Assembly (NCBI GenBank): GCA_027315365.1
Contig: DAHUYF010000153.1
Coordinates: forward strand, 516 to 64,515
DNA length: 64,000 nucleotides
Direction of reading: 5' to 3'
Source of the DNA: Rhodospirillales bacterium
GTDB taxonomy: Bacteria > Pseudomonadota > Alphaproteobacteria > ATCC43930 > CGMCC-115725
Each line of letters opens with the position of its first letter. The stretch's first letter is position 1. The translations under genes were made by a program, and so were the position numbers. Below, one piece after another: positions 26,754 to 42,796 of this stretch. Below the pieces are notes generated by a model. That model searched no databases. It worked only from the letters and a program-made list of their open reading frames with translations, and was not told the origin of the DNA.

Positions 26754-26778
26754 GGAACCGATGAACCCGCGGGGCGTT
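26754..26778 (+). promoter_or_regulatory. EcfG-type general-stress promoter, exact GGAAC-N16-CGTT
   Basis: GGAAC 26754-26758, 16-nt spacer, CGTT 26775-26778, ending 48 nt before ATG 26827. Cross-checked against the translation of track ORF 26725..27054 (..EGEPMNPRGVN..). Confidence 0.6.
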
Positions 26779-26826: not shown

Positions 26827-27054
26827 ATGAAAAGCTTAAGCCTTTACGCCGCCGGGCCGCCACCGATCCGCACGATCGCCATCGACGGCAGGACCTTCGA
26901 GCTGACCGTCCGCGAGCAGGCGGCGGGCGATTGGCACTGGCTGATCACCGCGCCGGGGCAGATCGTGCTCTCCGGCGCCGCTCCGAGCGAGACGCAGGCG
27001 GTGGACTCCGCCTGCCGCACCGGCGAGGCGCTGGCGCGACTGGCCGCCGCCTGA
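26827..27054 (+). CDS. Small hypothetical protein (75 aa), weakly DUF1508/YegP-like
   Basis: AAGAGGGG Shine-Dalgarno before the ATG; high GC3. The segment FELTVREQAAGDWHWLITAPGQIVLSGAAPSETQAVDSACRTGEAL is reminiscent of a single YegP-type repeat (low confidence). Confidence 0.55.
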   Translation: MKSLSLYAAGPPPIRTIAIDGRTFELTVREQAAGDWHWLITAPGQIVLSGAAPSETQAVDSACRTGEALARLAAA

Positions 27055-27153
27055 AACCGCCCCCAAGGCGACCGAAGACGGACAACAGCGACTAAGAATG
27101 GACGGCAGGCAAGGGCCGCCGCGCGCTGCGCCGGCTGCCCTTCGCTCATGCGC

Positions 27154-27948
27154 TCAGGCGGTTCCCGCTTCGCCGCCCTTTTCCGCCTCGCCGGCCTCGC
27201 TGGCCGCTTCCTTCGCGGCATCGATGGTGCGCTCGGCGACGTGCTTGGCACGCGCCACCGCCTCGCCGCCGAGATCGGCCGCGCGATGGCGCAGTTCCGC
27301 ACCGGCCGAGCCGATCCAGCGCTCCTCGGCGGCGCCTCTGGGCAGCAGGAACGCCACCGCCGCACCGGCCAGCAGCCCCAGCACGCCCAGCGCGATCGGA
27401 TAATCCATCATCAACGCGCCCATGCTCCGGCGTGGGCGGGTCAAGCGATCGGCCGCCTGTTCGGCCAGCGCGCTCGCCTGCTGCCAGGCGGTTTCCGCAC
27501 CCTGCTTCGCCTGGCCGGCAACGTCGCTCACCGCCCGCTGCGCCCGGTCCATCGCGTCGCCCGCCTTTTCGCGCGCATGGGCATAGCCGGCGAGATCGGT
27601 GGGATAGCGCTTGGCCGCCTCATGCGCCGCCTCGCCCGGGCGCCCCCGCGTGCTTGCCGCAAAGGCCACCCAGCCGATGCCCATCCCGATCAGCGCCAGC
27701 GGTACCGGATGGCGGCGCAGGGTCTCGCCGAAGCCGCCGCCGGATCCTTCCATCGTGTCTTTCAGCATGTCGAAGCCCCTTTCCAACAGTTCTTGCGGTG
27801 CCAGCCGGCGCTCCAGCTGAGCCAGGATCGCGCCGAGCTCGGCCCGCGTCGTCTCGATCTCCGCCGCGATGCGCTCCGGCGACTGGCCGGCGCCTTCGCG
27901 ATCGTCGCGCGCGACCGGCGCCAGCTCCGACGGCATGTCGGCGCTCAT
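27154..27948 (-). CDS. DUF3618 domain-containing membrane protein
   Basis: 264 aa. N-terminal SPERIAAEIETTRAELGAILAQLERRL is typical of DUF3618 as I recall it. Two TM segments (VPLALIGMGIGWVAFAA and YPIALGVLGLLAGAAVAFLL). ATG 27948 overlaps the stop of the upstream gene (ATGA). Confidence 0.7.
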   Translation of the reverse strand: MSADMPSELAPVARDDREGAGQSPERIAAEIETTRAELGAILAQLERRLAPQELLERGFDMLKDTMEGSGGGFGETLRRHPVPLALIGMGIGWVAFAASTRGRPGEAAHEAAKRYPTDLAGYAHAREKAGDAMDRAQRAVSDVAGQAKQGAETAWQQASALAEQAADRLTRPRRSMGALMMDYPIALGVLGLLAGAAVAFLLPRGAAEERWIGSAGAELRHRAADLGGEAVARAKHVAERTIDAAKEAASEAGEAEKGGEAGTA

Positions 27949-28364
27949 CGCACCCGCTCGCGCGCCCAGCGTGCGTCCTCGCGCAGGCTGCGCAGGCTGC
28001 GGCCGGGCAGCAGGTGCCGCGGGCCGAGATCGCGTTTTCCCTTGAGCAGCAGGACGGCGCCGATCGCGGCCGCGACGCCGCCCACCACCAGCGCGGCGGC
28101 CCAATCGGGCAGCACGCGGGCGAGCCCAAGCGTCGCCGCCGCCAGCAGCACCAGGAAGCCGGCATAGAGGATGAGACCGCCAGCGATCATCTCCGCCGCG
28201 CCGGCGCCGAGCTGGCTGAACTTGGCCGCGAGCTCCGCCTTGGCCAGCGCAACCTCCTGCCGGAAGAGCCGCGAGGCCTCGCGCGCCAGCGCCGCGAAGA
28301 GGCCGGCAACGCCGCGGTCCTCCCCCGGCGGCGGCATCACGCCGATATCGTCGCTTCCTACCAC
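27945..28364 (-). CDS. Holin-X family (holin superfamily III-like) small membrane protein
   Basis: 139 aa. FRQEVALAKAELAAKFSQLGAGAA, followed by two TM helices. The family call is from memory. Overlaps the upstream gene by 7 nt; alternative ATG at 28337. Confidence 0.7.
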   Translation of the reverse strand: MVGSDDIGVMPPPGEDRGVAGLFAALAREASRLFRQEVALAKAELAAKFSQLGAGAAEMIAGGLILYAGFLVLLAAATLGLARVLPDWAAALVVGGVAAAIGAVLLLKGKRDLGPRHLLPGRSLRSLREDARWARERVR

Positions 28365-28858
28365 CGGCCCGCTCCCGCGCCGCCAAGCGCTTCATCCGCC
28401 GGATGCAGCCCCTCCTGCCAGACCCCGGCGCCGACGCGCGGCGGCGTCGACGGCGCCGGCGCGGCCAGCAGGCGGCCGGCGACGAAACCGGCCGCCACCG
28501 TGCCGGCGATGAACAGCGCCGGCTGGCGGCGCGCCAGCGCCTCGGCCTCGACAAGGAGGTCGGCGAGCCGCCGCTCGCGCAGCACCGCCGCGACCCGGTC
28601 GAGCTGAGCGGCCGCCTGATCGGCGCAGCGCGAGGCGATCGGGCTCTGCTCGCGTTGCAGCGCATCGGCGGTGCGGCGGAAGGCCAGAGCGAAGCCGTGC
28701 ACGGTCTCGGCCAGCCGCGTCTTCTGCTCGGCGACGAGCGAGGCCGTCGCCTGGCGCATCTCCTCGCCGAGGCGGCGCGCGCCGTGGCGCGCCGTACCGA
28801 GCGCCGCTTCGGCGGCGCGCCTGCCGATCTCCGCCGCGTCCCCGTCCGGCTCCGCCAT
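28358..28858 (-). CDS. Hypothetical coiled-coil protein with a C-terminal TM anchor
   Basis: 166 aa from MAEPDGDAAEIG (ATG 28858). Long Ala/Arg/Glu-rich helical region, then the TM segment PALFIAGTVAAGFVAGRLL. First gene of the three-gene module. Confidence 0.6.
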   Translation of the reverse strand: MAEPDGDAAEIGRRAAEAALGTARHGARRLGEEMRQATASLVAEQKTRLAETVHGFALAFRRTADALQREQSPIASRCADQAAAQLDRVAAVLRERRLADLLVEAEALARRQPALFIAGTVAAGFVAGRLLAAPAPSTPPRVGAGVWQEGLHPADEALGGAGAGRW

Positions 28859-28906
28859 GTCTTGATCTCCCGCCCCAGCGGCGCACCTGCCGCGCGCTGT
28901 CGGAAC

Positions 28907-28932
28907 AACGCCGGCCGGAAAGCCGCGGTTCC
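28907..28932 (-). promoter_or_regulatory. EcfG-type general-stress promoter, exact GGAAC-N17-CGTT
   Basis: On the minus strand: GGAAC (28932-28928), 17-nt spacer, CGTT (28910-28907), ending 48 nt before ATG 28858. Cross-checked against the translation of track ORF 28403..29008 (..CRNNAGRKAAVPP..). Confidence 0.6.
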
Positions 28933-41421: not shown

Positions 41422-41446
41422 GGAACCGCCGGCCGGCGAAGCCGTT
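41422..41446 (+). promoter_or_regulatory. EcfG-type general-stress promoter, exact GGAAC-N16-CGTT
   Basis: GGAAC 41422-41426, 16-nt spacer, CGTT 41443-41446. It ends 30 nt before TTG 41477 (GGAGG Shine-Dalgarno at 41463-41467) and 81 nt before ATG 41528. Cross-checked against the translation of track ORF 41378..42796 (..WEPPAGEAVR..). Confidence 0.6.
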
Positions 41447-41476: not shown

Positions 41477-42796
41477 TTGGACAACCAGACCGAGCGGCCC
41501 GGTGAGGGCGGCGATCCCGCGGCCGCCATGACCCGCCTCATCGAGGCGCTCTACCCGATCTGTCGCAGCATCACCGGCGAGGGGCTGAGGCAGAGCCTGC
41601 GCCTGATCGCCCGGGAAATCCCGCTCAGCCTGGTCGAGGTGCCGACGGGAACGCGGCTCTTCGACTGGACGGTGCCGCGGGAGTGGAACGTGCGCGAGGC
41701 CTACATCGCCACGCCCGGCGGCCAGCGCGTGGTCGATTTCGCCCGATCGAATCTGCATCTCCTGCAATACAGCGTGCCGGTCGACCGCATCGTCGAGCGG
41801 AACGAGCTGCTGCGCCATCTCCACACCTTGCCCGAGACGCCGGACTGGATTCCCTACCGGACCGCCTATTACCGCGAGGATTGGGGCTTCTGCCTCAGCC
41901 AGCGACAGGCGGAAGGCCTGACCGAGCAGCACTACCGTGTCGTCATCGACAGCACGCTCGCCCCGGGCCACCTTACCTATGGTGAACTGGTCCTGCCGGG
42001 AGCGCGGGCGGAGGAGGTGCTGATCTCCTGCCATTCCTGCCATCCCTCGCTCGCCAACGACAATCTGTCCGGCATGGCGGTGGCGACGATGCTGGCGCGC
42101 CGCCTGATGGCGCGCAAGCGGCGCCTCACCTACCGCTTCCTGTTCATCCCCGGCACGATCGGCGCGCTCGCCTGGCTCGCCGCCAACGAGACGGTGGTGC
42201 CGCGGGTGACGCACGGGCTGGTGCTGAGCTGCCTCGGCGACAGCGCGCCGCTCACCTACAAGCAGAGCCGCCGCGGCGACGCCGCCATCGACCGCATCGC
42301 CGCCCATGTGCTGCAGGCGAGCGGCGAGCCCCATCGCATCGCCCCCTTCACCCCCTACGGCTATGACGAGCGGCAATATTGCTCGCCCGGATTCGACATG
42401 CCGGTCGGCTGCCTGATGCGCTCGCCCAACGGCACCTTTCCCGAATACCACACCTCGGCCGACAATCTCGACTTCCTGCGGCCGGCGGCACTCGCCGGCT
42501 CGCTCGAGGCGCTGGCGCGCATCGTCGAAGTGATCGAAGGCGACGGCACCTATCTCAATCTCAGCCCGAAGGGCGAGCCGCAGCTCGGCAAGCGCGGCCT
42601 CTACCGGCCGATCGGCGGCAAGAAGGAGGCGGGCGGCGGCGCCGACCAGATGGCGCTGCTCTGGGTGCTGAACCTCGCCGACGGCCGCCACTCACTGCTC
42701 GACACCGCTGAGCGCGCCGGCATGCCGTTCGCCGCGATCCGCGCCGCGGCGGACGCGCTGATCGAGAAGGAGCTGCTGGCGCCGGCGGCCGGCTGA
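41477..42796 (+). CDS. DUF4910 / aminopeptidase-like (M28-related) domain protein
   Basis: LYPICRSITGEGLRQSL near the N-terminus and CHPSLANDNLSGMAV in the core match my memory of DUF4910/DUF2172 proteins. TTG 41477 has a strong GGAGG Shine-Dalgarno. A conservative alternative start is ATG 41528 (MTRLIEALYP). Confidence 0.7.
   Translation: MDNQTERPGEGGDPAAAMTRLIEALYPICRSITGEGLRQSLRLIAREIPLSLVEVPTGTRLFDWTVPREWNVREAYIATPGGQRVVDFARSNLHLLQYSVPVDRIVERNELLRHLHTLPETPDWIPYRTAYYREDWGFCLSQRQAEGLTEQHYRVVIDSTLAPGHLTYGELVLPGARAEEVLISCHSCHPSLANDNLSGMAVATMLARRLMARKRRLTYRFLFIPGTIGALAWLAANETVVPRVTHGLVLSCLGDSAPLTYKQSRRGDAAIDRIAAHVLQASGEPHRIAPFTPYGYDERQYCSPGFDMPVGCLMRSPNGTFPEYHTSADNLDFLRPAALAGSLEALARIVEVIEGDGTYLNLSPKGEPQLGKRGLYRPIGGKKEAGGGADQMALLWVLNLADGRHSLLDTAERAGMPFAAIRAAADALIEKELLAPAAG

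Follow-up and report, generated by a model that had tools for sequence, protein, structure and literature searches.

The DNA considered here, called the window throughout, is a stretch of 64,000 nucleotides (nt) of contig DAHUYF010000153.1 from a Rhodospirillales bacterium, and the subject of this study is a group of three overlapping genes on its minus strand, named P1, P2, and P3 in the order in which they are read, within positions 27154-28858. The locus is a real chromosomal three-gene operon for small inner-membrane proteins, and it appears to be transcribed from a promoter of the EcfG type, i.e., one that serves the general stress response. The product of the middle gene belongs to the protein family of E. 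coli YqjE, and the locus as a whole looks like a divergent variant of the YqjDE(K) module, sharing its core subunit. The pertinent features are as follows.

28907 to 28932, minus strand: EcfG-type promoter motif GGAAC-N17-CGTT, an exact match
28867 to 28870, minus strand: GGAG resembling a Shine-Dalgarno sequence, 8 nt upstream of the P1 ATG, read from the sequence
28358 to 28858, minus strand: P1, 166 amino acids (aa), starting at ATG 28858, defined as an open reading frame (ORF) and its translation
27945 to 28364, minus strand: P2, 139 aa, with a GTG start, defined in the same way
27154 to 27948, minus strand: P3, 264 aa, with an ATG start, defined in the same way
27101 to 27120, minus strand: weak terminator-like hairpin, 34 nt past the P3 stop, found by a consensus scan

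The overlaps between the genes are just as described in a first-pass annotation of the window. The TAG that ends P1 and the GTG that begins P2 share 7 nt (28364-28358), and the ATGA at 27948-27945 combines the stop codon of P2 (TGA) with the start codon of P3. Since the cistrons overlap or abut, the arrangement suggests that P1-P3 are translated together. The GTG start of P2 is credible because its close homologs keep the same N-terminal peptide, several of them with ATG at the position of the GTG. The hairpin beyond P3 has a poor T-tract, and 0.9 such sites would be expected by chance, so it is at most a possible end of the operon. All three proteins are rich in Ala (20-25%), Arg (10-12%), and Glu (5-10%), and hydropathy analysis finds one hydrophobic segment in P1 and two each in P2 and P3, in keeping with the one or two transmembrane (TM) helices and the composition originally ascribed to them. 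A Pfam search assigns P2 to PF07332 and P3 to PF12277 (the Holin-X and DUF3618 labels of the first-pass annotation) and P1 to no family; none of the three matches an NCBIfam family. Neither a second copy of any of the three families nor a canonical DUF883 gene was found in the window.

P2 covers the whole of the PF07332 profile (Phage_holin_3_6, also called Holin-X), with E=1e-27 and a score of 96.9 bits (cut-off 28.4). Its hydropathy peaks at residues 64-82 and 89-107 (nt 28044-28175), on either side of the loop RVLPDW, predict a two-TM hairpin, preceded by an N-terminal amphipathic helix. The flank on the C-terminal side contains five Lys or Arg residues, and the C-terminus is rich in Arg; judging from the charges on both flanks, the two ends of the protein probably lie in the cytoplasm. 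E. coli YqjE is a member of the same family (75.8 bits, E=3.5e-21). This membership escaped the first-pass annotation, which supposed that neither the Holin-X nor the DUF3618 label had a defined function: PF07332 is the family of YqjE, the partner of the ribosome-inactivating protein YqjD. The link to YqjDEK therefore supplies a concrete alternative mechanism to the membrane stabilization that had been proposed.

To gauge how widely the three genes occur together, one genome per species was scanned with an alignment of 12 P2 sequences, yielding 80 loci, and P1 and P3 were then sought in six-frame translations of these loci with hidden Markov models (HMMs) of the three families. The PF07332 gene is immediately preceded by a P1-like gene on the same strand in 68 of the 80 loci and immediately followed by a DUF3618 gene in 74. 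The full set P1-P2-P3, in the same order and on the same strand, is present in 64 loci, and several of the gaps are ends of contigs. That the trio might be conserved as a unit, a possibility raised when the locus was first described, is thus borne out in at least ten phyla, with representatives in the Alpha-, Beta-, Gamma-, and Deltaproteobacteria, Chloroflexota, Verrucomicrobiota, Planctomycetota, Acidobacteriota, Gemmatimonadota, Armatimonadota, and Actinomycetota. Measured between HMM envelopes, the median spacing of P1 and P2 is 22.5 nt and that of P2 and P3 is -2 nt, so that P2 and P3 sit closest together, like yqjE and yqjK in E. coli. The nearest relatives of the trio are found in metagenome-assembled genomes of Stellaceae and in one uncultured alphaproteobacterium (P2 identity 82%). 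A cultured carrier is Azospirillum sp. B510, on plasmid pAB510c, where the genes (AZL_RS26750-26760) are annotated, in order, as hypothetical, phage holin family protein, and hypothetical. No fourth conserved gene was found across the 80 loci. The commonest extra neighbor (13 of 80) encodes a multi-pass membrane protein; for the most part it is the next gene downstream of the trio, on the same strand, in Chloroflexota.

The promoter motif reported by the first-pass annotation is an exact match to GGAAC-N17-CGTT, with precisely 48 nt between its last base and the ATG at 28858. The EcfG consensus drawn from transcriptomes of Sphingomonas melonis consists of GGAAC and CGTT separated by 16-17 nt and situated within about 100 bp of the coding sequence (PMC6599016), and the motif at the locus agrees with it in -35 element, -10 element, spacer, and distance to the coding sequence. 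Such motifs occur three times in the window, against an expectation of 0.46, and three or more were obtained in 2 of 100 shuffles; by itself this surplus would constitute modest evidence. Among the 20 alphaproteobacterial loci, 8 have an exact GGAAC-N16/17-CGTT no more than 100 nt upstream of the first gene of the trio, and 4 more have a form with a single mismatch (mostly TGTT); the exact motif is found in this position in none of the 60 loci from outside the Alphaproteobacteria. The chance expectation, from the rate in the shuffled window, is about 0.002 per locus. Across the alphaproteobacterial positives, the elements of the motif are conserved while the sequences of the spacers differ, and in Azospirillum sp. 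B510 a one-mismatch motif precedes the trio. Because the footprint of the motif upstream of orthologous operons is confined to the Alphaproteobacteria, the stress-promoter reading first put forward for this locus gains in credibility, and we infer that transcription of P1-P3 may well depend on EcfG.

Stress control of similar genes has been noticed in a distant lineage. A trio consisting of an unnamed protein, Holin-X, and DUF3618 was already listed among the genes of Actinoplanes induced by overexpression of sigma-H (PMC11205660). Two clusters of Actinoplanes sp. SE50/110 are concerned, ACSP50_3381-3382 and ACSP50_4921-4923, both of them with adjacent genes for DUF3618 and Holin-X and the second also with the unnamed protein. 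They resemble the locus in the window in being induced through a stress sigma factor; however, they have another sigma factor and another promoter, P3 in actinobacteria is a smaller protein of about 200 aa with one anchor, and the clusters figure only in an expression table, without being analyzed as a unit. Other Actinoplanes genomes sampled (loci L067 and L075) carry the trio in the order P1-P2-P3. Searches of the literature on DUF1469, on PF07332 and PF12277, on EcfG in connection with holins, and on holin-family proteins in the general stress response brought to light nothing relevant beyond the papers cited here.

If the family name of P2 were taken literally, the locus would be the remnant of a cryptic prophage, a lysis cassette made up of a holin and accessory proteins. 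The first-pass annotation thought the holin label misleading and saw no phage genes in the vicinity. The second statement holds, as neither endolysin, spanin, structural, nor integrase genes are present among the neighbors checked (about 23.8-34 kb). The first holds only in part: P2 has no link with phage, but the label is not wholly baseless. Apart from the Pfam name, Putative Actinobacterial Holin-X, the case for a prophage consists of one phage holin with that domain, Holin-1 of Salmonella phage vB_SpuM_23, for which a Phage_holin_3_6 domain, together with lytic activity, has been reported (PMC12774745), and the wider superfamily may therefore include real holins. P2 shares with such phage holins the domain label and the two-TM architecture, but its context is not that of a phage, it is not similar to PHROG families or phage genomes, and it possesses a long N-terminal amphipathic helix and conserved partners, both of which the phage holins lack. 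No PHROG family comes up for P1 or P2 at E<=0.1, and a tblastn search with P2 against 50,697 phage records gave no match at E<=0.01. (P3 did match a PHROG family, labeled tail protein, at 0.013 in its helical region, which we dismiss as coiled-coil noise.) YqjE finds just two records in the same collection, OR845630.1 and AGRM01000002.1. The former is an unannotated record of 1.9 kb named as an Escherichia phage, and the latter is a 691-kb contig of Salmonella enterica; evidently both are bacterial chromosomal DNA filed among phages.

In addition, the order of the trio is kept in unrelated contexts across the ten or more phyla, with no recurrent phage-like neighbor across the 80 loci, and a conserved stress-sigma motif stands upstream. 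A prophage remnant is strongly disfavored by all this, to the point of being extremely improbable, and P1-P3 is not a lysis cassette. The annotation "phage holin family protein" is probably misleading for thousands of chromosomal genes. To this extent the first-pass view of the locus, as a conserved unit behind a stress promoter that has nothing to do with lysis, is supported; what it lacked was the connection to YqjDEK.

P1 itself matches no Pfam family, and the same is true, at the family thresholds, of the scanned members of the P1 family. It has one hydrophobic segment, a Gly-rich TM at residues 114-132 (nt 28463-28519), and the AlphaFold2 model (pLDDT 79.6) shows helices at 5-69, 73-95, 98-111, and 113-132, followed by a disordered C-terminal tail. 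The protein may accordingly be pictured, from the model, as a helical cytoplasmic domain at the N-terminus, Pro113, a single TM, and the tail. The anchor of the family carries the invariant motif ARRQPxLF..G..R, in which all three P1 alignments agree without exception on Pro113 and Gly124, and on Arg129 with few exceptions or none. P1 thus has the conserved helix-breaking proline beside a Gly-rich TM that is a trait of DUF883 proteins. It is not, however, a C-tail-anchored protein, with its TM at the extreme C-terminus: the TM is followed by 34 residues in P1 and by up to about 100 in its orthologs.

Many homologs of P1 bear the JGI label "ElaB/YqjD/DUF883 family". With E<=1e-3, the P1-family profile picks out 15,672 clusters defined at 50% identity, and with E<=1e-10 it still picks out 12,218; Ala-rich helices may inflate both numbers. 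The family is nonetheless very large and has no Pfam or NCBIfam model, and it may merit a definition of its own. A search of PDB sequences with the P1 profile returned designed coiled coils, subunit b of ATP synthase, and apolipoprotein A-I, all with E>=1e-4; these were set aside as compositional noise.

P3 matches PF12277 (DUF3618) at residues 22-65 (nt 27754-27885), with E=1e-9 and 39 bits (cut-off 24.9), and the same family is matched by all 27 of the diverse P3 orthologs examined. Beyond the match are two hydrophobic segments, at residues 82-100 (nt 27649-27705) and 184-202 (nt 27343-27399), each combining a Pro with a Gly zipper, and between and after them are long amphipathic helices. 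The AlphaFold2 model is all alpha (pLDDT 66.5). Since the first segment is only marginally hydrophobic (1.67 on the Kyte-Doolittle scale), it may be interfacial rather than spanning. The number of anchors differs among lineages: there is one in the Actinoplanes loci, two in most loci including the window, and three or four in some Chloroflexota and Acidobacteriota, by counts from regular expressions and hydropathy that are too crude to give exact numbers. Were all of these segments to span the membrane, the C-terminal helix, which is conserved, would have to switch sides from one lineage to another.

Orthologs of P3 with different numbers of anchors may be seen in loci L018, L057, L076, L067, L075, and L080, and L015 and L016 encode the two halves of P3 in separate ORFs. 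The third gene on pAB510c of Azospirillum sp. B510, AZL_RS26760 (L083, 4074-4877), matches the P3 profile only from position 69, without the DUF3618 helix, and follows the holin-family gene after a gap of 186 nt. Either its start has been misannotated, or it has lost the N-terminal module.

Helices of this sort could serve simply to protect the membrane. In that case the amphipathic helices of P1 and P3 would lie on or in the surface of the bilayer as a coat, with P2 as its integral anchor, and would stabilize the cytoplasmic membrane during desiccation, osmotic stress, or stationary phase, in the manner of LEA proteins, apolipoproteins, phasins, YtxH, or PspA. The stoichiometric complex stabilizing membrane or envelope that the first-pass annotation inferred is close to this idea. 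The AlphaFold2 models of P1 and P3, both all-helical, are consistent with a coat, as are the stress-specific promoter and, better than a spanning arrangement would be, the low hydropathy of the first P3 segment and the varying number of segments. At sub-threshold levels, Pfam models of the expected kind are reached by many of the 27 P3 orthologs (Apolipoprotein 22, YtxH 14, ApoLp-III 12, ApoO 7, Phasin 7, LEA_4 2, CsbD 2) and by some of the 26 P1 orthologs (Apolipoprotein 17, YtxH 6). However, none of these similarities reaches the cut-off of its family, and they are what any amphipathic helix rich in Ala tends to show. Nor does structure provide a significant match: Foldseek, run with the P1 model against PDB, found nothing with E<1, PspA and Vipp1 appearing only at E above 4. 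A coat would also leave unexplained why a hairpin of the YqjE family should be the invariant partner. On balance we consider it unlikely, though it is the chief alternative to the reading favored below.

We turn to the module in which YqjE is best known. In E. coli MG1655, yqjD (encoding a DUF883 protein) is separated from yqjE by 2 nt, yqjE overlaps yqjK by 11 nt, and the three genes are transcribed from sigma-S-dependent promoters (PMC10746276). YqjD is a membrane-anchored ribosome-inactivating protein, and ElaB too inactivates ribosomes; these proteins and YgaM are C-tail-anchored inhibitors of translation that bind the 50S subunit close to the tunnel exit (bioRxiv 10.1101/2024.08.16.608256). 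Genes like yqjE and yqjK are syntenic with DUF883 genes throughout the DUF883 family (bioRxiv 10.1101/2024.08.16.608256), and complex formation has been predicted for YqjE and YqjK (PMC10746276). Overexpression of YqjE arrests growth (PMC10746276) and raises persistence (cited in PMC11302039 and PMC10746276). P. aeruginosa PA3040-3042 is an operon of the same kind, connected with cell-envelope stress and having subtle biofilm and tobramycin phenotypes (PMC11302039).

The trio in the window has much in common with these operons. The middle gene encodes a PF07332 protein here as it does in E. coli yqjDEK and in PA3040-3042. The yqjDEK genes and the trio each specify three small membrane proteins, first a helical anchored one, then a two-TM hairpin, and last a coiled-coil protein; their cistrons overlap or abut, a Gly-rich anchor comes after a conserved proline in both, and each is associated with a general stress sigma factor, sigma-S for yqjDEK and, by its motif, EcfG for the trio. 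P1 and P3 resemble YqjD, ElaB, and YgaM in having cytoplasmic helices, a helix-breaking Pro, and a glycine-zipper TM, and P1 is also like them in its synteny with a yqjE-like gene.

There are differences as well. P1 is longer than YqjD, has a tail of 30-100 aa after the TM, and does not match the DUF883 Pfam family. The third gene encodes a DUF3618 protein with two anchors in the window, and YqjK (PF13997) in E. coli. The trio has no counterpart to yqjC, whereas yqjDEK is part of yqjCDEK. Finally, the trio is spread far more widely than has been reported for DUF883, which is found mostly in Pseudomonadota. P1 and P3 either belong to families other than those of YqjD and YqjK or, so far as can be told from sequence, may have diverged from them beyond recognition.

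We favor, with moderate confidence, the view that P1-P3 would form a non-lytic inner-membrane complex induced by general stress, a divergent variant of the YqjDE(K) module. The glycine-zipper helices of P1 and P3 would pack with the hairpin of P2 to give a hetero-oligomeric complex in the inner membrane, from which, in stress or stationary phase, P1 and P3 would present their helical domains to the cytoplasm. By analogy with yqjD-yqjE-yqjK, the likeliest activity would be the docking or sequestering of cytoplasmic machinery, ribosomes being the first candidate. Even so, docking or silencing of ribosomes in the manner of YqjD commands only about a quarter of our belief, and protection of the membrane surface seems about equally plausible.

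What weighs against the YqjDE(K) comparison should be stated in full. The likeness of P2 to YqjE exists at the family level only, and BLASTP finds no match between the two. The N-terminal domain of DUF883 (PF05957) is not matched at E<=1 by P1, by 30 of its close homologs, or by 25 diverse orthologs, and neither of the two DUF883 models is matched at E<=1 by any of 26 diverse P1 orthologs; DUF883_C (PF19029) is reached by only 2 of 31 close homologs, with E=0.16. Compared by hhalign with the YqjD/ElaB/YgaM profile, P1 attains a probability of 42%, over 27 columns of the anchor only (9-18% with YqjD alone). The second anchor of P3 reaches 85% (E=6.5e-6) against the same profile, to be set beside the 83% obtained when the first anchor of P3 is aligned with the second. 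These profile similarities involve no more than 27-39 columns of a hydrophobic anchor rich in Gly and Ala, where composition by itself can lead to convergence. Among the diverse P3 orthologs, matches to DUF883 are sporadic and sub-threshold (DUF883_C in 5 of 27, best E=3e-4; the N-terminal domain in 4 of 27).

With regard to the third gene, P3 is not YqjK. Neither it nor its orthologs match PF13997, BLASTP gives E=9.5, and hhalign, against a single YqjK sequence, gives a probability below 1%; P1, similarly compared with YqjK, gives nothing. The variation from one to four hydrophobic anchors among P3 orthologs is at odds with one fixed topology. The promoter evidence, too, has its gaps, since the exact motif is absent from 12 of the 20 alphaproteobacterial loci, and six of the eight loci that have it come from closely related Stellaceae or Stellaceae-like genomes. 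Lastly, PA3040-3042 gave no growth inhibition (PMC11302039), and because its phenotypes are only subtle, a function like that of YqjD cannot be reliably transferred from one such operon to another.

The growth arrest and persistence brought about by excess YqjE (PMC11302039, PMC10746276) might be read in another way. Perhaps P2, as a member of the same Pfam family, assembles as an oligomer into a small pore that lowers the proton-motive force and slows growth under stress, while P1 and P3 restrain or time it, a dormancy module comparable to CidA/LrgA or to small membrane toxins. The two TMs of P2 are like those of class II holins, its Arg-rich C-terminal flank suggests a cytoplasmic C-terminus, a phage protein carrying a Phage_holin_3_6 domain is reportedly lytic (PMC12774745), and tight translational coupling would suit an effector and its regulator. 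However, growth arrest is an unspecific outcome of overexpressing a small membrane protein, overexpression of PA3041 in P. aeruginosa did not inhibit growth (PMC11302039), and P2, as described above, matches no PHROG family or phage genome. This is a minority reading, and we judge it improbable.

A bolder extension of the YqjDE(K) comparison would make the trio an ancient, pan-bacterial dormancy device, present in ten or more phyla, represented by over 10,000 P1-family clusters (at 50% identity), and distinct from DUF883. It would operate under whichever general-stress sigma factor the lineage employs (EcfG, sigma-H, or, for the YqjDEK branch, sigma-S). P1, P3, or both would dock and silence ribosomes, and the YqjE-like hairpin would be the core, organizing the complex or coupling it to the energization of the membrane. 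Taken together, these propositions are doubtful.

In the YqjDEK module, the ribosome-hibernation factor YqjD has YqjE and YqjK as its conserved partners. It now appears that the YqjE-family protein also occurs, and far more widely, with a second set of partners, the P1 family and DUF3618, and that this trio has stayed together as a compact operon from the Actinomycetota to the Planctomycetota, with a connection to general-stress sigma factors in at least two lineages. The common core of the stress membrane module would then be the YqjE-family hairpin rather than DUF883. The trio is very widespread, essentially unstudied, and misannotated as a holin, a conserved hypothetical operon with a plausible known analog. 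In the Alphaproteobacteria, where most of the EcfG regulon is still labeled "hypothetical", its members are candidates for membrane-linked adaptation to stress.

The genes around the operon (checked over the region given above) encode an SDR, an acyl-CoA dehydrogenase, a PAS-GGDEF protein, a DUF2336 protein, and an OmpA-family protein. Three of these, the genes for the PAS-GGDEF protein, the DUF2336 protein, and the acyl-CoA dehydrogenase, surround the trio in the Stellaceae relatives as well, in synteny with the window.

The remaining two EcfG-type motifs of the window also precede genes. Convergent with the end of P3 is an ORF of 75 aa with no Pfam family (ATG 26827 to 27054, plus strand), preceded by its own exact GGAAC-N16-CGTT at 26754-26778 (plus strand), which is likewise 48 nt from the ATG. 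The ORF occupies the same convergent position in loci L002-L006, L008, and L010, and in the six relatives checked (L003-L006, L008, and L010) the motif lies 41-55 nt upstream of it, five times exact and once with one mismatch. It looks as if the same stress regulon has a second member here. The third motif, GGAAC-N16-CGTT at 41422-41446 (plus strand), is found 31 nt before a TTG codon that has a GGAGG Shine-Dalgarno sequence. The gene behind it (about 41478-42796, plus strand) encodes a DUF4910/DUF2172/HTH_47 protein and may be another target of EcfG.

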